Numbered from the stretch's first letter, positions 223-56,140 are shown. The stretch: 64,000 nt of DNA from an uncultured Lachnospiraceae bacterium (GCA_949484645.1 CASYOT010000002.1:2912-66911); one strand, 5' to 3'. The notes: generated by a model not told the origin, from the sequence alone. Program-made: numbers and translations.

Positions 223-397
223 TATAAAATCTAAAGTTTTTGTATGTATGTCCGATATATACTATAATGAAATCAACATTTTTAAAATCTATTGTAGCAA
301 GGAAGCTGCGCCAAATTCAGGGAGGAAAATTCATGGCATTCAAAATCTGGAATTATTTTACCTAAGTATAATTGAACATTGAATAAGAAAAATATAG

Positions 398-4887: not shown

Positions 4888-5496
4888 AATAATCGCTTCT
4901 TTCTGATAATTATTTATAATGTATTAGTATATCACAGGAGTATAGCATGTAACAAGAATTTTTTGTAATGATTCCTGTTATTGATTTCTGTTATAAATAA
5001 TAGAAATGGTTAGAATGAAATAATTCGTAAATGATTGTATTTAATATGTATAAAGTTAAATTAAGGATAAGCCGATAAAAAGAATAAGAGTTAAATTGCG
5101 TTTTCTATCAGCATGGAAGCTGTATTTTATTCAGGGAGGAAGAAGAAATGACGAAAAGGAAAGACATGCAGCGAAAAATTGCATGGGGGGGGAAAATCAG
5201 AATCTACTAAAAAGTGGAAAAAAATTCAAACTTTATATGGATTATCTCAAGAGACGTTAGGGGCAATTTTTTTGTTGCCTTTTTTTTGGTGTCTGCCGTT
5301 TGATCCGGTTATGGCTTGTAAAGGATATAAGTGTGTTGGGATAAGAATGGATAAGAATTGTTGGAAGGACGCCTATGTTTGAAACAAAGACAGCATGGGA
5401 AACGCAGTGAATATACTACAATTCTTTTTTTGCGTTTTATAACATTTTTTGCAACAGAAGATAATATGCCAAAATAGCTGGGAAGAAGGAATTAAA

Positions 5497-7077
5497 ATGA
5501 ATTTAGAAGCTGAATTTGAACGGTTAAAAACATGTTCCCGTATTTTGATTTGGGGCGGCGGTTATCATACGAAAGAGGCGCTAAGGTTTTATAAATCTTT
5601 TTTTAGGGAACGGGACATACAGATTGTAGATAAGAATAAGGCAGGCCAAAGCATAGAAGGATATAAAATTATTGCTTCAGATGAAGCAGATTATTCGATT
5701 GATTATGTTGTGATTATGTCGTCAATATACCATGATGAAATTGAATATGCTTTGCGGAACAGACATGGTTATCAAGGGGCAGTGATAGGTTTATATGCGT
5801 TTCGGAGAGTTCTTTTAAAACTGGATTCATATGAAGAATGTATTGGGCATATGGAAGATTTTGTGTCTCATATGGAACAAGGCATAGCAAGTTATTCTTA
5901 CGACTATATATTTCAAGAAAACTATAGCGTATATAAAAAAATAAGGCTATATGCGTTTTGGGCGTCTTCTATTGGTGAATCAGTCCGGTATTTATCGGCA
6001 TATTATGAAACTGTTTTTAAGGATAAGGCAGAAGATGAATACTGCCTGTTAATTCCCTATATAAAAGGGAATGATTTCGCGAATGGGCAATTTATAGAGG
6101 TTGTTTCCCGTACAGTTCCTATGGTTACATATTGCAACTGTCATTTTTGGGAGTATGCGGTGAAAAAGTACAGAGAGCGTTTTGATTTGACGTCTTATAA
6201 TGAATTTAACGGTATTTTAGTGGATGCATATAATCAATTTGATGAACGGATTATAAACAGGACGTTTTGTGATAAAAAGTTTCCTTTGATTGCCTATACG
6301 CCGGAAGAACGTAAGATGGCGGAATATAAATTAAGGCAAATGGGCGTTTTTGGAGATTTCGTGTGTATATTTGCAAGAGATAACCACTATTTGCAGCATC
6401 AGTATGGACAGGCTTATGGAATTAATGAAATAAGAAATATGGATATCAATTCTTTTAAATCTGCAGTGGATTATTTGGAGGGACAGGGAGTAAAGGCAGT
6501 CCGCATGGGAAAAGTTGTCAACGGGCCGGTCAATCTGCCAAACTGCATAGATTATGCGGCGGATTTCCATAGCGACTTTATGGATTTATATTTATGCGGT
6601 AATTGCAAGTTTTATGCAGGGAGTTTGTCTGGGATTGTTGCGCTTGCCCAGCTTCAAAGCGCGCCTGTGGTTTTGCTCGGGGTGGTTCAGCTGGGGATTC
6701 ACAATTCAATACCATATAGGAGCAGAGATATTTACGTCCCAAAGAAAATATATGACAAAAATAAGAAACGTTTTTTAAATTTTACGGAAATATGGGATGC
6801 GGAAATGGCCGCTAAGGACAAAATATCAAAATATTATGGGGAACACGGGCTTGAGTTTATAGAGCTTGGCAAAGAAGAAATAAAAGAAGCGATAGTGGAG
6901 ATGAACGATAAATTAGATGGAGTGTATCAGGAAGACGAACAGGAAAAAGAACTTCAAAAGAAATATCATTTGCTGTTGGAAAACTGGATATTAGAGAATG
7001 GATACCAGTATTCTTATTTCTTGCATATTGACATAAGCGGCAGTTTTATTAAAAAGAATACATTTATGCTTGCATAG
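5497..7077 (+). CDS. hypothetical protein with PglD_N-like Rossmann N-domain and large uncharacterised C-terminal domain (possible transferase)
   Basis: Start chosen at MNLEAEF with GAAGGA RBS (track start 5449 also possible); N-terminal RILIWGGGYHTKEAL...IVDKN resembles the N-domain of paralogs at 26583, 28033 and 30528; no confident family. Confidence 0.4.
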   Translation: MNLEAEFERLKTCSRILIWGGGYHTKEALRFYKSFFRERDIQIVDKNKAGQSIEGYKIIASDEADYSIDYVVIMSSIYHDEIEYALRNRHGYQGAVIGLYAFRRVLLKLDSYEECIGHMEDFVSHMEQGIASYSYDYIFQENYSVYKKIRLYAFWASSIGESVRYLSAYYETVFKDKAEDEYCLLIPYIKGNDFANGQFIEVVSRTVPMVTYCNCHFWEYAVKKYRERFDLTSYNEFNGILVDAYNQFDERIINRTFCDKKFPLIAYTPEERKMAEYKLRQMGVFGDFVCIFARDNHYLQHQYGQAYGINEIRNMDINSFKSAVDYLEGQGVKAVRMGKVVNGPVNLPNCIDYAADFHSDFMDLYLCGNCKFYAGSLSGIVALAQLQSAPVVLLGVVQLGIHNSIPYRSRDIYVPKKIYDKNKKRFLNFTEIWDAEMAAKDKISKYYGEHGLEFIELGKEEIKEAIVEMNDKLDGVYQEDEQEKELQKKYHLLLENWILENGYQYSYFLHIDISGSFIKKNTFMLA

Positions 7078-12711: not shown

Positions 12712-14352
12712 ATGAAGATTTTGTTGGTGGTTCCGCAATACTATAGCCGGAAAGAACGATATTATCAAATGCCATTAGGCTTAGCGTATGTGAATGCAGC
12801 TCTGCGGGAAGCAAATTTAGATGTGCAATGCCTGAATATGAACCATATTGAAGCAGAAGACGCCTATTCAGTTTTAGCTGAACGGGTAGTAAATTCCAAT
12901 ATTGACGTTGTCCTTTGCGGCGGAATAAGCCCGCTTTGGAAAACGATTGAAAAAGTGTTTGATACAGTTAAAAGGGCAAAAGCTTCCATAATTACTGTGG
13001 GGGGGGGTGGAGCCTTTACGTCGGAGCCTCTTATTTCAGCGGAACTTCTTGAAGTAGATTATGCTGTAATTGGAGAAGGGGAGATTACAGATGTAGAGCT
13101 TATTCAAACGTTGATGGCGAATCAGAATGTAAGCAATGTAAAAGGAATTGTATATAAAACGCCGGACGGATATAGGCAGACGGCTCCGAGGGAAGAAATT
13201 GCCGATGTGGATTCCATTCCATTTCCATGCTATGAGGGGTTTGACATGGATTTATATTTAGAAAATCAAATGGTGAGCGATGAATATTATTCTTTTTATT
13301 CGGACAAGCCGAGAATTATGCCGATGATTTTAGGCAGGTCATGCCCTTATCAATGCAAATTTTGTTTTCACCCTATAGGAAATAAATACAGGGTGCGAAG
13401 TCTGGATAATTTTTTTATGGAACTGGATCAATGGAAGAATAAGTATGCTCCAACCTGTATTTTGATATTAGATGAATTATTTAGCGCAAGCGTTGAAAGA
13501 GTGTATGAGTTTTGTGAAAGAATAAAAGGATATGAGATAAAATGGATTGTCCAAATGCGGGTGGATATTATCACGAAAGAGTTATTGCAGACAATGCGGG
13601 ACGCCGGATGCCTCAGCATCAGTTATGGACTTGAAAGTTTTAGCCCTGCAGTTTTGAAAAATATGAGAAAACATATCTCTTTAGCAGACATAGAAAACGC
13701 TTTAAAATTGACTTATGAAGCAAAAATAGACATTCAGGGCAATTTTATTTTTGGAGACGAGTTAGAAAATGAGCATACGATATATGAAACATTGCGGTTT
13801 TGGTTTCAGCATCCAGAATATAAAATTAATTTGGGGTGGATAGAGACATATCCGGGATGCGGCTATTATCAGGAATTATCAAAAAATTGGAGCGTTGAGG
13901 AGAAAAAAGCATTTTTAGAAATGAGTGAATGGCTGACAAATTTAACAAAGATGCCAGATGAAGAATATGGGAAATATAAAGTTGTGATTCAACTGCTTAC
14001 ATTTTATTATAACCCAGATTGTGTGAAAGAAAAAGAGACGCGGACAGACGAAAATGGCGATGGGATTATTGAAGCGAAGTGCGTGCATTGCGGTTCGGTA
14101 AATCGGTGGGCAGGAGTTAAAAAATATCTGCTAAATCAATCGTATTTTAAATTATGCTGCCGGAAATGCAATCATAGGAATGTGATTTACAGCAGGAAAG
14201 AAAGGTTAAAAAATTGGGATTTAATTCTGCCATTATGTGAGAAAATGGCTTTGGCAACAAAGGAAGATGAATTTATTAAAGCGGTAAACGCTTTATATGA
14301 GACGTATATGGTGACGCATGACCCAGAAAATCCATTTCCTGTTTTGTTTTAG
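12712..14352 (+). CDS. B12-binding (class B) radical SAM enzyme, putative sugar C-methyltransferase or related
   Basis: N-terminal B12-binding-like region (MKILLVVPQYY...PLGLAYVNAAL) followed by CPYQCKFC radical SAM motif; 546 aa; contains an in-frame G9 tract at 12999..13007. Confidence 0.75.
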   Translation: MKILLVVPQYYSRKERYYQMPLGLAYVNAALREANLDVQCLNMNHIEAEDAYSVLAERVVNSNIDVVLCGGISPLWKTIEKVFDTVKRAKASIITVGGGGAFTSEPLISAELLEVDYAVIGEGEITDVELIQTLMANQNVSNVKGIVYKTPDGYRQTAPREEIADVDSIPFPCYEGFDMDLYLENQMVSDEYYSFYSDKPRIMPMILGRSCPYQCKFCFHPIGNKYRVRSLDNFFMELDQWKNKYAPTCILILDELFSASVERVYEFCERIKGYEIKWIVQMRVDIITKELLQTMRDAGCLSISYGLESFSPAVLKNMRKHISLADIENALKLTYEAKIDIQGNFIFGDELENEHTIYETLRFWFQHPEYKINLGWIETYPGCGYYQELSKNWSVEEKKAFLEMSEWLTNLTKMPDEEYGKYKVVIQLLTFYYNPDCVKEKETRTDENGDGIIEAKCVHCGSVNRWAGVKKYLLNQSYFKLCCRKCNHRNVIYSRKERLKNWDLILPLCEKMALATKEDEFIKAVNALYETYMVTHDPENPFPVLF

Positions 14353-15068: not shown

Positions 15069-16033
15069 TTCTTCCTTTTTTGAATATAAATTGGCTCTAA
15101 AATAAAACGTGGGAGAATTGCGTATGGCCATACATGGAACCATATCGTAGGATATTTGTATGTATTTAAAAATAATATCCATTTATCGTCCATATCATAC
15201 TGATTATCCTCTACGCTGTATTTTAGGATAGAATCTTTAATAAATCCTTTCATGTCAGTAAGAAAGATTTTTTTCATCTGGCTTTTTGGAAAACCGGCTT
15301 TTACGGCTGTTTGGAGCAAAAGTCTTTTATATTGCTTTACCCAGACTTCAAATAAATTAAATCCGCCGCTGTTATTATTTTTTGCGGCTAAATAGGGGGC
15401 TTTTGTCAGGATCATTTTAGTATTTTTGCCTGAGAGAATGTGAAATACGATATGCGCGTGTAGAAAATGGGTTCCAAAATATTTCTCAGGATGCTTTATT
15501 TGTTTAAATTTGCTCATTTTCAGAACGGTTGCAGATATATACGTTACATAAACGCCAATGTAATTCATCAGAAGGGTTTTATCGTAAGTAATCAGATCGT
15601 TTGTTTCCCTAAGTTTTATTCTTGGCGCTTTTCTAATGTCCGGATTGAATGTCTGTGTTGAATATGTAAAAGAATTTATATTAATATAGGCTGGTCTTTC
15701 TGTTTTTATCAGATATAATATTTTTTTTATCGCTCCGGGCAGCAATATGTCATCGTCCGAGAGAAACTGTATATATTCGCCGTTCGCTTTTTGGAAACAG
15801 TTAAAAAAATTTTTATCCATACCCAAATTTTTTGAATTACGATAATAACGTATCTTATGTTCTTTGCAATATTTTTTCATTACTTTTGGGGTCTCGTCTG
15901 TGGAAGCGTTATCTGATACAAGGATTTCAACGCCGTCTTCCAACTGCCCTAGCGCGCTTTCTAATGACTGGCATAATAAATGACAGCGGTTATAGGTAGG
16001 GATAGCGACTGTCAGTATAATTTTTTGTCCCAT
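15062..16033 (-). CDS. family 2 glycosyltransferase (GT-A fold)
   Basis: IPTYNRCHLLCQSLESALGQ...VSDNASTDET...DDD motifs typical of GT2; start set to MGQKIIL with RBS (track start 16138 overlaps the upstream gene). Confidence 0.8.
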   Translation of the reverse strand: MGQKIILTVAIPTYNRCHLLCQSLESALGQLEDGVEILVSDNASTDETPKVMKKYCKEHKIRYYRNSKNLGMDKNFFNCFQKANGEYIQFLSDDDILLPGAIKKILYLIKTERPAYININSFTYSTQTFNPDIRKAPRIKLRETNDLITYDKTLLMNYIGVYVTYISATVLKMSKFKQIKHPEKYFGTHFLHAHIVFHILSGKNTKMILTKAPYLAAKNNNSGGFNLFEVWVKQYKRLLLQTAVKAGFPKSQMKKIFLTDMKGFIKDSILKYSVEDNQYDMDDKWILFLNTYKYPTIWFHVWPYAILPRFILEPIYIQKRKKK

Positions 16034-16037
16034 GATC

Positions 16038-16970
16038 TTACCTCTTTCTTTTGGTTTCATAATACTGGATTGTTTTTTGGATGCCTTCTTCAAAGGGAAT
16101 TTCAGGCTTCCAGCCGGTATCTCTTGTAAGAGGTTCAATATTGATACAAGAACTTGGCATTATGCCGGGGGAGCTGATTTTTCTTTCGGGAGGGGGAGTT
16201 TTTTCTCCAATGCCTAAAGGAAGCGATGGGTTTATCATGTCCCGAATAGTTAAGACGTATTCCCGAAGTGTTTTGTGCGTTCCGCTTCCTATTCCATATG
16301 TAATATTATGCCTGCCTTTCTCTCCAATTTTAATAATTGCTTTTGCTACATCTGATACATAGACAAAATCCCAATTAGACTGGAGATTGCCATAGACAGG
16401 GTATTTGCCATCTAAAAGAGTGGTAATCGTATAAGTCAGGATATTGTCTTCTGTTCTTCCTTCCCCATATGTGCTTGGAAGAACAGTCCAAATCATATCC
16501 TGCCCTAATTGCGCGGCAACGGCTTCTAACAGATAGTGGACGGAAGTTTTTGTGGCTCCATAGATGTCAATGGGCGTCTGTTTCCTTGAAAAATCAATGA
16601 CGCATACATTATAAACATATTCTGCCACTGTGCCTGCGGCCAGAAATAGTTTGCATTTTAAATATTTAGAGAGACGTAACATATCCAGAGAAGTTTCGAT
16701 ATTGCTTAATTGCAAAGGAATGTTGTTTTTTTCTTTCCCAGAAACGCCTGCCCAGCCAAGATGATAAAATATATCATATGTTTTTCCAGACAGCCTTTGC
16801 GCCAGTTCTTTAAATTGATAGCCGGCAGTTATTGTTTTTACGGAAGAATTATGAAATGGCATAGAGGAGGGGGAGGAGGTCAGGACGGTTACGTTAGCGC
16901 CTGATTTTAATAATTCCGCAACAACATATCTGCCGATAAATCCGGTTCCTCCTGTAAGAATGGCTTTCAT
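16038..16970 (-). CDS. NAD-dependent epimerase/dehydratase family (SDR) sugar reductase/epimerase
   Basis: MKAILTGGTGFIGRYVVAELL Rossmann motif; YGATK catalytic YxxxK; 310 aa. Confidence 0.75.
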   Translation of the reverse strand: MKAILTGGTGFIGRYVVAELLKSGANVTVLTSSPSSMPFHNSSVKTITAGYQFKELAQRLSGKTYDIFYHLGWAGVSGKEKNNIPLQLSNIETSLDMLRLSKYLKCKLFLAAGTVAEYVYNVCVIDFSRKQTPIDIYGATKTSVHYLLEAVAAQLGQDMIWTVLPSTYGEGRTEDNILTYTITTLLDGKYPVYGNLQSNWDFVYVSDVAKAIIKIGEKGRHNITYGIGSGTHKTLREYVLTIRDMINPSLPLGIGEKTPPPERKISSPGIMPSSCINIEPLTRDTGWKPEIPFEEGIQKTIQYYETKRKR

Positions 16971-20785: not shown

Positions 20786-20955
20786 AATGTCCTCTTTTCC
20801 GAATATACAATTTTAGTTACATTTAGGGGGATGCAGCAATTAAAAAACCCTAATACTATATCGGCAATTTTTGGGGAAACATGAGAAGCGGTTGTTACGG
20901 AAAAGTTATATTTGTCCGATATAAAAATAAAGTATGGGAAAGGATGAGGGGGAAA

Positions 20956-22641
20956 ATGAGAGAAGATGAGCTTTTAGAATATGGAATACAGCAGTTTGAG
21001 AAAGAAATATACGAGGAAGCTTTAGAAGCGTTCGTTTTATTACATATGAGAGAATATAACCAAGAGGAAATCTTAAAGAATATCTATTCGTGTTATATGG
21101 AAGGGAATGAGGGGCAGTTTCGGGAGACATATGGACGTTGTAGTATTTTTAAGGAGATTCCCTATGAAGAATGTTTGCTCGATTTTGTTCCATATAAAGA
21201 AGGGGAATATTTTATTTATGATAAATTAAAAAGGGGGTTTTTGGGAACTCTTTCTTTGCCTGAAATTGAGCGTGAAAAAGAGCTGAATAGAGAATTTGAT
21301 GATATTGCGGTAGAACTTGACTGGGACTGGCGGTTGTTTAAGCCTGCTTTGAAGTGGACGGGCAAACATAAACTATACGCCATATGCCATGACAAACGGC
21401 GCTCGGTTTCATTCTGTAAGATCCCTGAAATGGAAAAATATTTTCAGAAGGTGTTTGCGTTTGGGGATCGAGAAGAATACCGGCAATATTTCCATACAAA
21501 TACCAGCGTATTTTTGCCACGTTTTTTTTGGGGGAATCAGGATGACAAACTTGCTTTGGCGCATATATGGGAGGAGGAGCACGCTTACCGTCTTACGCCT
21601 CAGGGAAGGAATACAGAGAATGTTGTGTTGTCAATCGGGATACCGACGCATGACCGTGGGAATTTAGCTTTGGAAAAAGTGGTAAATTTGCTGACGATGT
21701 GTTATGACGCAGAAATAGAAATACTGGTTTCTAAAAATGGTATGGCGTTATATCAAGAGGAATATCGTAAAATTGCCGCAATTTCTGATGCGAGGCTTCG
21801 TTATGTGGATCATAATAAGGAACTGACGGCGGATATTTCATGGATAAAAACGGTTGAGCTGTCGAAAGGACGGTTTACGTTGCTGGTCAGTGATGAGGAT
21901 AGTGTGATTATTGAAGCGCTTGATCACTATCTTTCAATGCTTTTGGAAAATCCGGAATTGATTTTTGTAAGGGCAAAAACGGCGCTGCAATATAGTTTTA
22001 TCACGACAAAGGAGATGAAAAAAGGAATAGACGCCTTTTCTCAGGTTTTTCTCCAGAATAATTATTTATCCGGCGCAATTTTAAGACGGGAGGCTTTTAT
22101 GCGGCTTCCATTTGAAAAAATTAAAGAGGAGGCCAAAAGCAATGCGTATTATATTTCATATACGCATGAATGGTGGTTTTGCTTTTTAAGTTTCGAAGGA
22201 GATTGCCGTTTGGATGGAGAATGTCTTGTTGAAGAAGGAGACTCTGTACGGGAGAAACAGGGGGAGCAGTACAAAAAACGGGGAGAAGACGCATTGTCTG
22301 CCGGATATGATTCAGATGGGGGCCTGCAAAGTTATGCCACATATGAGAGCAGGCTGGAACAATTTAAAGGATACATTGAGTTTATTCACTATATAGAGGG
22401 AAAAGGCGGGGGAAATCTGGCGCAAAAAGGGGTTAAACTTGCAATCAACAAAACAATCAGTCTGATTAAATTGGCGTATTTTGGATTTCATTATAAGACA
22501 GATGAGATTATGGAAGTGTTGGACAAGTTTAGCAGGCTTTGCATATCAGCAGTGGAAGAATTTGCTTTTACTGCGGAGGAGAAAGAGTCGCTGCTTCGGA
22601 TATTGCTTCATCAAATTCAAAATGGTGGATGGGAAATATAA
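20956..22641 (+). CDS. large GT2-domain protein with helical N-terminal domain (paralog 1), candidate glycosyltransferase
   Basis: Central VVLSIGIPTHDRGNLALEKV...LLVSDED segment resembles a GT2 Rossmann/DxD region; start set to M26 (ATG 20956) with GGATGAGGGGG RBS; 562 aa. Confidence 0.55.
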   Translation: MREDELLEYGIQQFEKEIYEEALEAFVLLHMREYNQEEILKNIYSCYMEGNEGQFRETYGRCSIFKEIPYEECLLDFVPYKEGEYFIYDKLKRGFLGTLSLPEIEREKELNREFDDIAVELDWDWRLFKPALKWTGKHKLYAICHDKRRSVSFCKIPEMEKYFQKVFAFGDREEYRQYFHTNTSVFLPRFFWGNQDDKLALAHIWEEEHAYRLTPQGRNTENVVLSIGIPTHDRGNLALEKVVNLLTMCYDAEIEILVSKNGMALYQEEYRKIAAISDARLRYVDHNKELTADISWIKTVELSKGRFTLLVSDEDSVIIEALDHYLSMLLENPELIFVRAKTALQYSFITTKEMKKGIDAFSQVFLQNNYLSGAILRREAFMRLPFEKIKEEAKSNAYYISYTHEWWFCFLSFEGDCRLDGECLVEEGDSVREKQGEQYKKRGEDALSAGYDSDGGLQSYATYESRLEQFKGYIEFIHYIEGKGGGNLAQKGVKLAINKTISLIKLAYFGFHYKTDEIMEVLDKFSRLCISAVEEFAFTAEEKESLLRILLHQIQNGGWEI

Positions 22642-22938
22642 CATTTTATTTTGTTCTAAAGTTTCTATAGGAAATATCCGATATATATTTATAGCAGTGA
22701 TTTCGGGCGTATTGTAAAAACCCAAAAATCATGGGGGGGGGGGGTAAACAGAATGAATAATTTTGTTTTGGATCGTTTTTCCAATTATATAAATAAAGAG
22801 TTTTGTATTGCCCTTCCGGGTGGTTTTTCAAAGAATTATTACTGGGCATCTATGATGCGTAAATAAAAAGTTGACATTTGCCAACTTTTTTGTTTTATAG
22901 AACACAAGTAAAATTAAGAAGGGGATGAAGGGCTTTTA

Positions 22939-24654
22939 ATGGGAAATAGAATATTAGATTATGCTTGTGAACAGTTTGAGAGCCGTAATTATTGTGAAGC
23001 GTTGGAAGCGTTTGTTTTAGCTTATATGAAAGGTTATGAGCCGGAATGGGTGATTGAAAACATTTATAATTGTTATGTGGCTTGTAATGAGCCGGAATTT
23101 CGCAATGCTTATGGAAAGTGTGGGGCAGAGGTAAGCTATGAGGATTGCGTGTTGGACTTTATGCCTTATAAAGAAGGGGAATATTATATTTTTGATAAAG
23201 AGCGAAAGCAATTTATTGGAAAGTTCTTAGTTTCAGAACTAAAGATGGTTTCATCAGAGGAAGCATTAAATGAAATCGAGTTTGGCGCGGTGGCGGAAGC
23301 GTTCCATTGGAATCTGAAGGAAGAATATCAACTGCTTGCGGCGGCAAAAGACAAGAAAGTGTATGCAGTCTGCCATGAAATCAATTATATTTCTTCCTTT
23401 TATAAAATACCGGAGTTAGAAGAATATAATAAAAATGTGAAATTGTTTCAGGATTTCAGTCAGTTTCAGCAATATTTCCATAAAAATACGGGAGTTTATC
23501 TGCCCCGGATTTTGTCAGGGGATTTAGAGAGTGTAAAAGAATTAAATGAAATAGTTGAAGCGGAACATCAATTTAGATTAACTCCGGAGGGACGCAATAC
23601 AGATCACGTATTGCTTACGATTGGGATACCTTCACGGAATAGAGGGAATCTTTTGTTAAAACGGCTGGAAAATCTGCGGAACATAAAACTGGATGCGGAA
23701 ATTGAAATTGCAATTTCGAAAAACGGCGTGGATTTCTATCAGGAAGAATATGATCAAGTGAATCAGGCGCAGGATTCCAGAATTTGTTATTATGATCATC
23801 ATAAGGATTTGGTGGCGCCTGAGAATTGGCATTTTGTGGTAGAAATGGCGCATGGGAAGTTTGTATTGCTGGTTTCGGATGAAGATGACATTATTTTAGA
23901 TTCTTTAGGGCATTATCTAAAGCTGATAACGGAGTATCCGCAAGCGAGTGTGATAAGGGCAAAGTCCTGCATATTTTATTCACGTTTATCGGAAAGATTG
24001 TATGCGGAAGGGACGGATGCATTAAAAAAAGGATTTTTGAAGCAAAATTATTTGTCAGGGTTGATTTTTAACAGGGAAAAGTTTCTAAAGCAAAATTTGC
24101 TGCGGTTAGAAAAATTCCGGGAAGATAATTTATATTATTGCCTGTATCCGCATGAGTGGTGGTGCGCCATTTTGTCAAAAAACGGCGTTTATATGGAAGA
24201 ACCGTTTTTGTTGGTTCAGGAACGTGAGTCTGTGATTCAGGAAGAAAACTCAAAATATATTGAAAAAGGAGTGATAGAAGAAGGAGAGCATATTGCAAAG
24301 GGAACAAGTCTGCCGGCGTATTCCACATATGAAAGCCGCTTACAGCAGTTTTTGGGCATGATGGAATTTGTGCGTTGGATTGCAGATGGGGATAAGGAGC
24401 TTGCTTTTTTTTGCGTTGCAAGTTGTATAAGTAAAATTTTATTTCTATTGCTGCTGGCAAGGGAGAGGGGGTATGAAGTCTCAAACTTTATGAATATAGT
24501 TGATAAATTTTGCAAAATGTCTATTGAAGCAATCCGTGAGTTTGATTTTTCTGAGGAACAGCAAGTGAAGTTATTATCAATATTAAAAACAAGCGCAATA
24601 GAAACATATGGGCAAGAGAGGGAGATTTTTGAAAAAGAACAGAATGCAGGATAG
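22939..24654 (+). CDS. large GT2-domain protein (paralog 2 of 20956..22641)
   Basis: Aligns with paralog 1 over its whole length (EALEAFVL..M..Y...I.NIY.CY......F...YG.C; GIP..NRGNL; LLVSDED; HEWW); AAGGGGATGAAGGG RBS. Confidence 0.55.
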   Translation: MGNRILDYACEQFESRNYCEALEAFVLAYMKGYEPEWVIENIYNCYVACNEPEFRNAYGKCGAEVSYEDCVLDFMPYKEGEYYIFDKERKQFIGKFLVSELKMVSSEEALNEIEFGAVAEAFHWNLKEEYQLLAAAKDKKVYAVCHEINYISSFYKIPELEEYNKNVKLFQDFSQFQQYFHKNTGVYLPRILSGDLESVKELNEIVEAEHQFRLTPEGRNTDHVLLTIGIPSRNRGNLLLKRLENLRNIKLDAEIEIAISKNGVDFYQEEYDQVNQAQDSRICYYDHHKDLVAPENWHFVVEMAHGKFVLLVSDEDDIILDSLGHYLKLITEYPQASVIRAKSCIFYSRLSERLYAEGTDALKKGFLKQNYLSGLIFNREKFLKQNLLRLEKFREDNLYYCLYPHEWWCAILSKNGVYMEEPFLLVQERESVIQEENSKYIEKGVIEEGEHIAKGTSLPAYSTYESRLQQFLGMMEFVRWIADGDKELAFFCVASCISKILFLLLLARERGYEVSNFMNIVDKFCKMSIEAIREFDFSEEQQVKLLSILKTSAIETYGQEREIFEKEQNAG

Positions 24655-35937: not shown

Positions 35938-36845
35938 AACTTTGTTTAGGGACTGTCCAACAGGGATTGGAATATGGGATTAATAATAAGTATGGAAAGC
36001 CTTCAAAAGAGTATAGCCAAAAAATCTTTTACGAAGCGGTAAAGCATGGGATTACAATGTTTGATACGGCAAGGGCATATGGAGATGCAGAATTGCTTTT
36101 GGGGGAATATTTAAAAGAACATGGGAATCGAAATGAAATCAAGATCATATCAAAACTCCGTCCGAACATACTAGAAGGTTGTAAGGATATATACGATACG
36201 ATATGCCGGGAATGTGAAGGCACTTTAAAGCGGATAGGCGTAGAATCCTTAGACGGATATTTGCTCCATACGCCGGAGTACATCCGAGATCCCAAAGTCG
36301 TTTCGGCTCTTTTAAAATTAAAGGAGGAGGGATATGCTTCGCATATAGGCGTATCCATTTACAATATAGAAGACGGGGACGTTGCAATCAATACGGGGGC
36401 AGTTGACTATATACAGCTTCCTTTTAGCATATTTGACCAGCGCGGAAAAAACAGCGGATTTCTCCGGCGGGCAAAAGAAGCCAAAATTACGGTATTTGCA
36501 AGAAGCATATTTTTGCAGGGATTGTATTTTATGGATGCGGGCAGTCTGCCGGAAAAAGTGAAACGGGCAGAGCCTATGCTGCGGAACTGGGAGCTGATTT
36601 TAGAGGAGCGTCACGCCAATCGGGAAGAAGTCTTAATTGAATTTGTGAAACAGTCCAAAGAGATTGATTATCTTGTGTTTGGAGTAGACACAGTGGAACA
36701 GTTACAAAGAGATATTTCTGTATTCGAAAGCGAAAGTAAATTAGATGAAACTATTTGGAACATAATCGGAGAAAAATTTTCCGATGTGGAGGAAAGCATT
36801 ATAATACCAAGTTTATGGGCGAAACAAGAAAGGAAGGGAAAATGA
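35934..36845 (+). CDS. aldo/keto reductase family oxidoreductase
   Basis: MKLCLGTVQQG...FDTARAYGDAELLLGEYL and IGVSIYN AKR signatures; ATGA overlap with the upstream stop. Confidence 0.75.
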   Translation: MKLCLGTVQQGLEYGINNKYGKPSKEYSQKIFYEAVKHGITMFDTARAYGDAELLLGEYLKEHGNRNEIKIISKLRPNILEGCKDIYDTICRECEGTLKRIGVESLDGYLLHTPEYIRDPKVVSALLKLKEEGYASHIGVSIYNIEDGDVAINTGAVDYIQLPFSIFDQRGKNSGFLRRAKEAKITVFARSIFLQGLYFMDAGSLPEKVKRAEPMLRNWELILEERHANREEVLIEFVKQSKEIDYLVFGVDTVEQLQRDISVFESESKLDETIWNIIGEKFSDVEESIIIPSLWAKQERKGK

Positions 36846-37544
36846 TGGGAGCAAAAAACATTTTTTTAACGACAGAAGGGGACGCATGGTATAGGAGAAA
36901 CCGTGAAAAGTTAGAAGAAGAAAGTGGATTTTCGGCGGTGGATTTAATGATTGATTTTCTAAATAGACAAAAAAAATCTCTGGGGGGGGGTAAATGGCTT
37001 TTCGTGGGATAAGCTGAATATTTTGGAAATCGGGTGTAGTTATGGATATAATCTGGCAAAGTTTTGCGAATCATTTTCTTGTCAATGTTATGGAATTGAA
37101 CCGTCAAAAGAAGCGGTAGAAGATGGAAATAGAAGATATAAGGATCTGCCAATTCAATTAACTCAGGGAACAGGGGATCTTTTGCCGTATGAGGCGGAAT
37201 CTATGGATGTGGTTATAATGGGATTTTGCATGTTGTGGATGGAGCGGAAAGACATATTGCAGGCATACGCGCAAGCAGACAGAGTTTTGAAAACAAATGG
37301 GATTATGATGGTTTATGATTTTGATGCGAAAATGCCATATCTTAGGGATAATATCCATAATAGAGAAGTGTTTACATATAAAATGGATTATGCGCAGCCG
37401 TTCATGGCTTTTCCAAACTATTATTTAATGGATAAGACCGTATTTTGCCATATGGGAAATTTTTTTGACAAAAGAATACAGGAAAGAATATCTTTGCAGA
37501 TTTTATATAAAGAGTCTTTGGAGGATGCGTATAGGAAAGGATAA
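36842..37544 (+). pseudogene. SAM-dependent methyltransferase, frameshifted at an A8-G9 homopolymer (candidate phase-OFF copy)
   Basis: Two consecutive ORFs (36842..37006 and 37023..37544) together align to the intact paralog 37571..38266 (about 85% nt identity); the reading frame breaks at the G9 tract 36982..36990; an 8-G version restores ...SLGGVNGFSWDKLNILEIGCSYGY.... Confidence 0.7.
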
Positions 37545-37570: not shown

Positions 37571-38266
37571 GTGGAGGCAAAGGAGATATTCTTAACGACA
37601 GAAGGGGACGCATGGTATAGAAGAAATCGTGAAAAACTGGAAGAAACAAAAAATTTTATTGCGGCAGAGATAATCATAGAATTTTTAAACAGACAAAAGA
37701 GCGGTATGGGAATGAATGGCTTTGCATGGGAGCGTTTTAAGATTTTAGAAGTCGGATGCAGTTATGGTTATCATTTGGCAAAGTTTTGTGAAGCGTTTCC
37801 CTGCCAGTGCTATGGAATTGAGCCGTCAAAAGAAGCGGTGGAAGACGGCAGTCATAAATATAAAGGCCTGCCTATGCAGTTAGTTCAGGGGACAGGTGAT
37901 TCTCTGCCATATGAAGCGGAATCTATGGATATTGTCATTATGGGGTTTTGTATGTTTTGGATGGATAGAAATCATCTGCTGCAGGCGTATGCGGAAGCGG
38001 ACAGGGTCTTAAAACCAAAGGGATTGCTTATAATTTATGATTTTGACACGAAGCTTCCCTATGTCAGAGACAATGCGCACAGTAAAGATGTGGATACATT
38101 TAAAATGGATTATGCAAAAGCGTTGACGGCTCTGCCGCATTATTACTTAATGGATAAAACGGTGTTTTGCCATAAAGGAAATTATTTTGATGAAGATATA
38201 CAGGAAAGGATTTCCATGCAGATTCTTTATAAGGAGGATTTCAAAGATGCATATATCAGAGGGTGA
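37571..38266 (+). CDS. class I SAM-dependent methyltransferase (intact tandem paralog)
   Basis: ILEVGCSYGYHLAKF motif I and VIMGFCMFWMD; 231 aa; GTG start at 37571 as in the track, with no in-frame ATG before it. Confidence 0.65.
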   Translation: MEAKEIFLTTEGDAWYRRNREKLEETKNFIAAEIIIEFLNRQKSGMGMNGFAWERFKILEVGCSYGYHLAKFCEAFPCQCYGIEPSKEAVEDGSHKYKGLPMQLVQGTGDSLPYEAESMDIVIMGFCMFWMDRNHLLQAYAEADRVLKPKGLLIIYDFDTKLPYVRDNAHSKDVDTFKMDYAKALTALPHYYLMDKTVFCHKGNYFDEDIQERISMQILYKEDFKDAYIRG

Positions 38267-51662: not shown

Positions 51663-51739
51663 GAGAATCGAGCGCGTATGCCGATATAAAAGGCAGAGAC
51701 CTATCAGGGAGGATATGGAACAAACATGGAGGTTGCCCT

Positions 51740-55872: not shown

Positions 55873-55974
55873 TGTGTTCGGGAAAGGGAAGTTTTTAAGT
55901 CGTTTTTATTGTATTTGACAGATGTTTTGGCATATGCTATTCTTGTCATAGAAAAACTGCATAAGAATCTTCAG

Positions 55975-56140
55975 GGCAGGGTGACTTTGCAAAGCAGGGG
56001 ATTCCCTACCGGTGGTAAAGCCCACGAGCCGCAAGGCATGATTCGGTGACTCTTATCAAACGGCAAAAGTCGGATAAGCGGGATTCCGAAGCCGACAGTA
56101 TAGTCTGGATGAAAGAAGGTAAATGTCGTATCGTTTTTAG
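55975..56140 (+). ncRNA. FMN riboswitch (RFN element) aptamer
   Basis: Conserved RFN blocks: cagggcagggtga...ggattccctaccggtggtaaagcccacgagcc...gattcggtga...cggcaaaagtcggata...gggattccgaagccgacagtatagtctggatgaaagaagg; lies upstream of ribD. Confidence 0.85.

Follow-up and report, generated by a model that had tools for sequence, protein, structure and literature searches.

A length-variable, non-coding poly-G tract between two paralogous genes of a Lachnospiraceae flagellin glycosylation island

The DNA considered here, a window of 64,000 nucleotides from an uncultured Lachnospiraceae bacterium, contains an island for flagellin glycosylation of ~55 kb. Positions 1-172 of the window are the 3' end of a flagellin gene, whose terminator comes next (the full flagellin gene is present in contig L063); farther downstream is a Maf/PseD-like flagellin glycosyltransferase. 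The sugar-pathway genes comprise PseB-, PseC-, PseG-, PseH-, PseI- and PseF-like members and a second NeuB with a Leg-type gene set (making two NeuB in total), and the island also contains many radical SAM/SPASM enzymes, TPP enzymes, methyltransferases and nucleotidyltransferases. It ends near 55.4 kb, ahead of the riboflavin genes; the FMN riboswitch that precedes the riboflavin operon and marks this boundary (55963-56124, 82 bits) is the only Rfam match over the window and is unrelated to the tract with which we are concerned. Several of the carrier samples are mouse-gut metagenomes, and one carrier is labelled 'Eubacterium sp.' MAG in NCBI.

The tract lies between two genes on the + strand: paralog 1 (20956-22641; 561 aa as gene-called, with a GT-A-like central domain) and paralog 2 (22939-24654; 571 aa, with a weak GT2 domain). 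At 41% identity over 551 aa the two proteins are, on sequence comparison, true paralogs. The original prediction spoke of two large GT2-domain paralogs, and the paralogy stands; the GT-A/GT2-like matches in both proteins are weak (residues ~220-350), with paralog 2 reaching 28.9 bits against Pfam GT2 (cut-off 23.3 bits) and paralog 1 giving only sub-threshold NCBIfam matches. A PDB sequence search with paralog 2 returned no match. Behind paralog 2 runs a long series of same-strand sugar-biosynthesis ORFs with short gaps, which are assumed to be co-transcribed with it.

Within the spacer, twelve consecutive G residues occupy positions 22733-22744 of the + strand; the paralog 1 stop (22641) lies 92 nt before the tract and the paralog 2 start (22939) 195 nt after it. 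Position, length, both distances and the rank of the tract as the longest homopolymer of the 64-kb window had all been given correctly. It had also been written as ATG-G12-TAA: the run and the TAA are right, but the ATG is not separate from the run, because its G is the first G of the tract, so that the true string is AT-G12-TAA (in context, aaaaatcat-GGGGGGGGGGGG-taaacagaATG; flanks in the window, cccaaaaatcat-G12-taaacagaATGaataat). The next longest homopolymers are likewise runs of G, at 36982-36990 (G9), 12999-13007 (G9) and 5185-5192 (G8). All of the long tracts are G on the + strand, on which G far exceeds C (16600 vs 10106) and the longest C run is at most 5. The distribution of G runs is discontinuous, with 46 G5, 6 G6 and no G7, followed by single lengths of 8, 9, 9 and 12; the four long tracts all lie within the first 37 kb, which is the variable part of the island, and none lies in the remaining 27 kb. 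A run of at least 12 G in 64 kb has a chance expectation of 0.004 for independent bases and 0.017 for a first-order Markov sequence. The G12 tract is real and far beyond chance.

The position of the tract between the paralogs is the one thing that speaks for the suggestion, made with the original prediction, that it is a remnant of the duplication that generated them. The remaining evidence runs the other way. Identity of 41% bespeaks ancient or separately acquired copies; the relatives of the two proteins at 41-51% identity, all from Lachnospiraceae (Roseburia, Lachnobacterium, Eubacterium sp. 14-2), are about equally distant from both and mostly single-copy within the stretch compared; three other tracts of the same kind are located far from any duplication junction; and the spacer around the tract evolves at a neutral rate, so no junction scar could have survived. 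The suggestion finds no support, and we regard a duplication scar as hardly credible.

Eight spacer haplotypes are available for comparison, and they partition the spacer into three parts. No variation is found in the 48 nt that follow the paralog 1 stop. At the other end, the 46 nt leading up to the paralog 2 ATG (22893-22938, + strand), which include the ribosome-binding site GAAGGG at a distance of 6 nt from the ATG, differ by a single AG/GA dinucleotide. The middle ~215 nt, comprising the tract and a small ORF, have ~22 variable sites and two indels beside the tract.

The invariant upstream block contains a candidate SigD (sigma-28)-type promoter at 22657-22685 of the + strand, TAAAGTTT-N13-CCGATATA (cTAAAGTTT-N13-CCGATATA with its leading nucleotide). 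The motif TAAAGTT-N13-16-CGATAWA is found three times in the window, as against 0.00 times in shuffled sequence, and all three copies are intergenic and on the + strand: at 232, before a small-gene/Maf pair; at 5051, before the G8 tract and a TIGR04372 glycosyltransferase; and at 22657. The organism's own flagellin gene (in L063) has cTAAAGTTT-N13-CGATATA ~140 nt upstream of its start. The form of the motif (TAAA, 17 nt, CCGATA(A/T)), including the 17-nt spacing from TAAA to CCGATA, is that of the C. difficile fliC SigD promoter, which has been mapped by RACE in an organism whose flagellar glycosylation genes are strongly SigD-dependent (PMC3865298). The conservation of the motif, its presence at the flagellin gene and the C. 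difficile match together are the grounds for reading 22657-22685 as a SigD-type promoter. The predicted transcription start lies near 22692, which would place the tract at ~+41 of the leader; the -10 element ends 48 nt upstream of the tract.

No sigma-70-like -35/-10 pair brackets the tract on either strand, and a role as a promoter spacer is thereby ruled out. In this respect the tract differs from the intergenic G/C homopolymers of N. meningitidis porA, opc and fetA, which lie between -35 and -10 with variable effect; the likeness extends to an intergenic G homopolymer near a surface-related gene. The original prediction had proposed that the tract modulates transcriptional read-through or the promoter of paralog 2. 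The notion of a variable regulatory element survives and gains some support from the placement of the tract downstream of the invariant SigD-type promoter and upstream of paralog 2.

Downstream of the tract, directly after the stop of the small ORF, lies an A/T-rich palindrome (22866-22892, + strand; AAAAAGTTGACA..TG(C/T)CAACTTTTTT), which holds a perfect TTGACA (22871) and could be a weak hairpin with a U-run (a leaky terminator) or an operator. Folding energies of -8.0 kcal/mol (window) and -12.6 kcal/mol (other haplotypes) are predicted for it, as against -23.3 for the flagellin terminator, and a terminator scan made no call at 22866-22892. Taken whole, the spacer is only slightly more prone to fold than shuffled sequence (z -1.66). 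An RNA switch is rejected, since the folds predicted for leaders with G6 to G16 are similar in energy and in accessibility of the paralog 2 ribosome-binding site.

The length of the tract is not fixed. Exact protein sequence look-ups retrieved 24 further conspecific contigs with the spacer, which together with the window make 25. The run is uninterrupted in every one of them and takes seven lengths, G9 to G15 (G9 in three contigs, G10 and G11 in eight each, G12 and G13 in two each, G14 and G15 in one each); an uninterrupted run of at least G9 is present in all eight spacer haplotypes. A single haplotype with identical flanks, h7 (nine contigs from four studies), spans G9 to G14, and the tract is therefore a hypermutable repeat. 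Four samples of one study that share haplotype h5 all have G11, so the length measurement is reproducible and not noise. The length-polymorphism analysis that had been proposed as a check thus refutes a fixed length, and the idea of a variable regulatory element survives because the length is not fixed. Lengths are spread over the three reading-frame classes without bias (6/10/9 in the 25 contigs). When JGI metagenomes were scanned for exact copies of the sequence flanking the tract, there were no matches; a protein-based scan found two near-identical contigs that do not include the spacer, along with distant relatives.

Long G runs are error-prone, and in three cases (L003, L047, L059) the contig breaks off 1-80 nt from the tract, as would be expected if the length differences were errors of homopolymer sequencing or assembly and not biology. 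Against this, the spread from 9 to 15 is far wider than +/-1, the four samples of one study agree on G11, and the coding sibling tracts described below vary alike, with exact protein products on tens to hundreds of contigs (NCBI, ENA, JGI, Logan). An artefact is very improbable. The contig ends also fit assembly trouble at a heterogeneous repeat, or switching within a population, of which they are a weak hint.

The tract is non-coding. A 37-codon ORF (22753-22866, + strand; gene-called in >330 contigs) starts 8 nt after it, and the tract therefore fills the Shine-Dalgarno position of this ORF. The ORF probably does not specify a functional protein. Its homologs among 5.8 billion proteins are confined to its own cluster, and the loci of relatives hold no match to it. 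Essentially all of its ~11 variable nucleotide positions in the eight haplotypes change an amino acid, and its pN of 0.06 is about equal to the pS of 0.05-0.07 of both paralogs and of the two genes that follow, for which pN is ~0.009; by this comparison it evolves at a neutral rate. The ORF as a real gene or a gene remnant is rejected on the same two counts, its want of homologs and its neutral evolution. An ATG overlaps the tract (22731) in three of the eight haplotypes (h0, h1, h4) and is AAG in the other five, and no ATG-extended product of 43-46 aa is on record in any public assembly; an ATG-Gn start-codon switch is rejected on these grounds. A test for an intragenic frameshift switch also failed, as the tract lies in no conserved ORF and its lengths have no mod-3 bias.

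In a broader form, a small-protein switch would have the tract move the ATG at 22731 in and out of frame with the 37-codon ORF, yielding 44 aa at G11 or G14, or serve as a variable Shine-Dalgarno sequence, the regulated product being the peptide itself or translation up to the hairpin. Several features accommodate such a switch: the ATG reads into the ORF at G8, G11 and G14, and contigs L001 and L002 have G11; in the haplotypes examined, 7-9 nt separate the tract from the ATG of the ORF itself; the hairpin begins right at the ORF stop; and the ORF is open in all eight haplotypes. These are outweighed by the AAG of five haplotypes, by the missing 43-46-aa form, by the nonsynonymous substitutions at a neutral rate in an ORF that has no homolog, by an in-frame length in only two of the six ATG-carrying contigs, and by the consideration that slippage leaves the spacing between the tract's 3' end and the ATG of the ORF itself as it is. 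A switch of this kind is improbable.

The G12 tract is not alone. The island contains at least four poly-G tracts, all of them length-polymorphic in public assemblies; the original prediction, which had seen the G12 run, missed both the three further variable tracts and the glycosylation-island context. For the siblings, the protein product was predicted for each tract length and looked up as an exact sequence in public assemblies. At two of them, length changes bring an enzyme gene into or out of frame. The G9 tract at 12999-13007 (+ strand) lies in frame (ON) in a B12-binding radical SAM gene (12712-14352); the 546-aa product is found on ~300 contigs and 5'-truncated calls of 413 aa on ~105 (about a quarter), and the loci compared at the DNA level have G9 in ten cases, G10 in three and G8 in one. 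The G9 tract at 36982-36990 (+ strand) puts a SAM-methyltransferase gene (36842-37544) out of frame (OFF): the corresponding 56-aa product is on 220 contigs, the 233-aa (ON) product of G8 on 39, the 50-aa (OFF) product of G10 on 30 and the 234-aa (ON) product of G11 on 7. Directly after this gene comes a tandem methyltransferase paralog without a tract (37571-38266, ~74% DNA identity).

The third sibling, G8 at 5185-5192 (+ strand), lies in a small leader ORF ~100 nt downstream of the second SigD-type promoter (5051-5079) and ahead of the TIGR04372 glycosyltransferase gene (5500-7077). Its products are those of G10 on 186 contigs, G9 on >120, G7 on 3, G13 on 2 and G12 on 1, and L063 has G11. 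In the region from 5051 to 5500 the promoter precedes a strong ribosome-binding site and a small ORF that is shorter or longer according to the tract, with 20 aa at the G8 of the window and 78 aa, a putative hydrophobic product, at G10, the commonest form. The leaders that carry the G8 and G12 tracts are not homologous, since only the promoter motif aligns.

The island shows the birth of a new variable tract as well. In haplotypes h6 and h7 a single A-to-G change converts GGGAGGGGGAG (window ~16186-16196) to G9 within a minus-strand epimerase gene (16038-16970); the new run (at ~3436 in L052-L057) now varies between G8 and G9, with G8 in L056 and L057 and a truncated gene call in L057. Poly-G runs are also found in the islands of more distant Lachnospiraceae. 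In a Roseburia sp. MAG (L010, 15676-15695) the string is G9-TAAAATA-ATG, with the G run closing the ORF before it while standing where the Shine-Dalgarno site of a GT2 gene would be, and L011 has G8-TAAAGG at 21597-21604; a 'Gn-TAAA' motif recurs at four tracts.

These facts suffice for the construction of a provisional model of the G12 tract, one that draws on analogy with uspA1 of Moraxella catarrhalis and that we advance tentatively, at a little short of an even chance: the tract would be of the contingency type, lie in the transcribed leader of paralog 2 and tune expression gradually. It tests as slip-prone, being a homopolymer above the threshold of ~8 nt whose length differs among close relatives, and a further feature of a contingency locus is also present, in that the associated genes modify a surface structure, the flagellin. 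Replication slippage would change the tract length (G9-G15 among conspecific assemblies). The SigD-type promoter between the paralogs would transcribe a leader bearing the tract at ~+41 and running through the small ORF and the A/U-rich hairpin with its U-run to the ribosome-binding site of paralog 2. Tract length would then set the amount of paralog 2 mRNA or protein in a graded manner and not ON/OFF, unlike the frame-switching siblings. Two routes can be envisaged: length-dependent pausing or slippage of the polymerase on a C template, or altered ribosome loading or leader stability, the G run mimicking a Shine-Dalgarno site. That the promoter fires, that its transcripts reach paralog 2 and that tract length alters expression is what we infer. 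What makes the leader model more than a guess is the repetition of the architecture at 5185, where a SigD-type promoter, a leader with a G run and a glycosyltransferase gene follow one another, and the Roseburia MAG in which a G9 run sits at the Shine-Dalgarno position of a GT2 gene.

Several observations count against the leader model. The flanks are unconstrained, and the neutral rate with indels beside the tract means that there is no conserved partner element; predicted folds barely change between G6 and G16; and the tract lies outside a promoter spacer. The presence of the hairpin with its U-run and of TTGACA between the tract and paralog 2 makes it possible that paralog 2 has a promoter of its own and that SigD transcripts end short of it. 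Neither the SigD motif nor a tract was found ahead of distant homologs of paralog 2.

Some of the same evidence is also accommodated if the tract truly slips but affects no gene, having arisen from a G-rich stretch such as the Shine-Dalgarno-like GGGAGGGG on a G-rich leading strand and persisting by mutational dynamics alone. In Campylobacter, short tracts tend to lengthen and long ones to shorten; if the same tendency applies here, a neutral tract could stay at 9-11 G with no selection acting on it. The neutral rate of the flanks and of the orphan small ORF, the indels, the lack of frame bias among lengths, and predicted RNA structures that do not vary with length are consistent with such a tract. 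All of the tracts are G on the G-rich + strand whatever the orientation of the gene, which, with the excess of G over C, points to a mutational origin on that strand, and the single A-to-G change that made a G9 from GGGAGGGGGAG in h7 provides an example of how one is born. Mutational dynamics do less well with the confinement of the four long tracts to the first 37 kb and the absence of any G7 from the window, with the exact placement of the G12 tract, like that of the 5185 tract, in the interval from a conserved flagellar-type promoter to a glycosyltransferase gene, and with the uninterrupted persistence of the G12 tract at G9 or more in all eight haplotypes. A neutral by-product is a quite substantial possibility, nearly as likely as a leader rheostat.

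Among systems with which the island can be compared, the flagellar glycosylation locus of C. jejuni is close in content, having several variable G/C tracts, intragenic and intergenic, that switch frames (PMC3068675, PMC8355987). Campylobacter-type islands have Maf and Pse/Leg genes beside the flagellin, and so does this one, with four polymorphic poly-G tracts; flagellin O-glycosylation, the pseudaminic/legionaminic acid pathways, modifying enzymes and variable poly-G are shared with the C. jejuni locus (Cj1295, maf family). The differences are that C. jejuni is an epsilonproteobacterial pathogen, whereas the host here is a Gram-positive Lachnospiraceae gut commensal of 42% GC; that the promoters here are SigD-type and the G12 tract is non-coding; and that the phase-variable genes are those of the B12-radical SAM enzyme and the SAM-methyltransferase, not maf. 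The leader model has its precedent in uspA1, where G(n) upstream of the gene gives graded amounts of mRNA, low at G8-10 and high at G11-12, with a 21-fold difference between G10 and G12 (PMC7302503). Both tracts are poly-G of similar length (~8-12 in uspA1) upstream of an ORF and not in a frame-switching position; unlike the uspA1 tract, which is 29 bp from the start codon and has a measured effect, the tract here is 195 nt away, with an unconstrained ORF and a hairpin between, and its effect is an inferred one. The poly-T tract of Helicobacter pylori sabA and the distal repeats of Neisseria nadA are described as non-coding, outside the core promoter and acting stepwise on transcription (PMC4081817, PMC2791445); they lie upstream of the promoter and work through DNA geometry or repressor operators, unlike the present tract, which is downstream of the predicted start. 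Flagellar expression in C. difficile is reported to vary by an invertible DNA switch (PMC5386303) and not, as would be the case here, by homopolymeric tracts. Full-text literature searches found no paper linking homopolymeric tracts or slipped-strand variation with Lachnospiraceae flagellar glycosylation, and a 2026 survey of flagellar glycosylation in Clostridium names C. jejuni alone in connection with phase variation.

Simple-sequence contingency loci and phase-variable flagellin glycosylation are known; the Lachnospiraceae host is new. Phase variation by homopolymeric tracts is textbook matter for mucosal pathogens (Campylobacter, Neisseria, Haemophilus, Helicobacter, Moraxella), and in gut commensals phase variation has been described mainly through invertible promoters. 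Among the major targets of TLR5, IgA and T cells are flagellins of Lachnospiraceae from mouse and human, the CBir1-type antigens in colitis included. It is conceivable, if on balance doubtful, that a mouse Lachnospiraceae commensal runs a Campylobacter-like multi-tract system in which frame-switching tracts are combined with non-coding G runs in leaders that serve as expression dials; within that reading, and with the same reserve, the dials would be the G12 tract before paralog 2 and the G7-G13 tract before the TIGR04372 transferase, each lying between a SigD promoter and its gene. Such a system would generate combinatorial flagellin glycoforms in a commensal. A glycan coat that switches stochastically would offer a commensal a route to immune or phage evasion, and the switching would entail strain-level heterogeneity hidden in metagenomes. 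The least certain member of the system is the G12 tract, which is also a test case for non-coding leader tracts as dials in Firmicutes; a single, ordinary-looking contingency repeat nevertheless exposes multi-tract variation in a commensal Firmicute. On the practical side, variable tracts cause split or 'pseudogene' calls and contig breaks in MAGs.

A few further observations concern the same DNA. A T8 run (A8 on the coding strand; 15721-15728) in a minus-strand GT2 gene is T7 in L042, where the gene is truncated, an isolated homopolymer frameshift that does not belong to the poly-G set. CCGATAWA occurs 16 times in the window, as against 5.7 expected. Additional CCGATATA boxes, intergenic and facing downstream genes, are found at 20857-20864 (- strand), 20916-20923 (+ strand) and 51681-51688 (+ strand); they (paralog 1 being among the genes so preceded) have no canonical TAAA at the right distance and are possibly SigD-type promoters of lesser strength. 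After the promoter at 232 comes a near-copy of the flagellin leader (window 232-365; L063 4105-4280), with a GCAGC-AAGGAA-GCUGC hairpin and AGGAGG, which we take to resemble a CsrA-type binding site, and then a truncated ATGGCA... start. The segment 232-365 appears to be a partial duplicate of the flagellin promoter and leader, placed ahead of the Maf operon.
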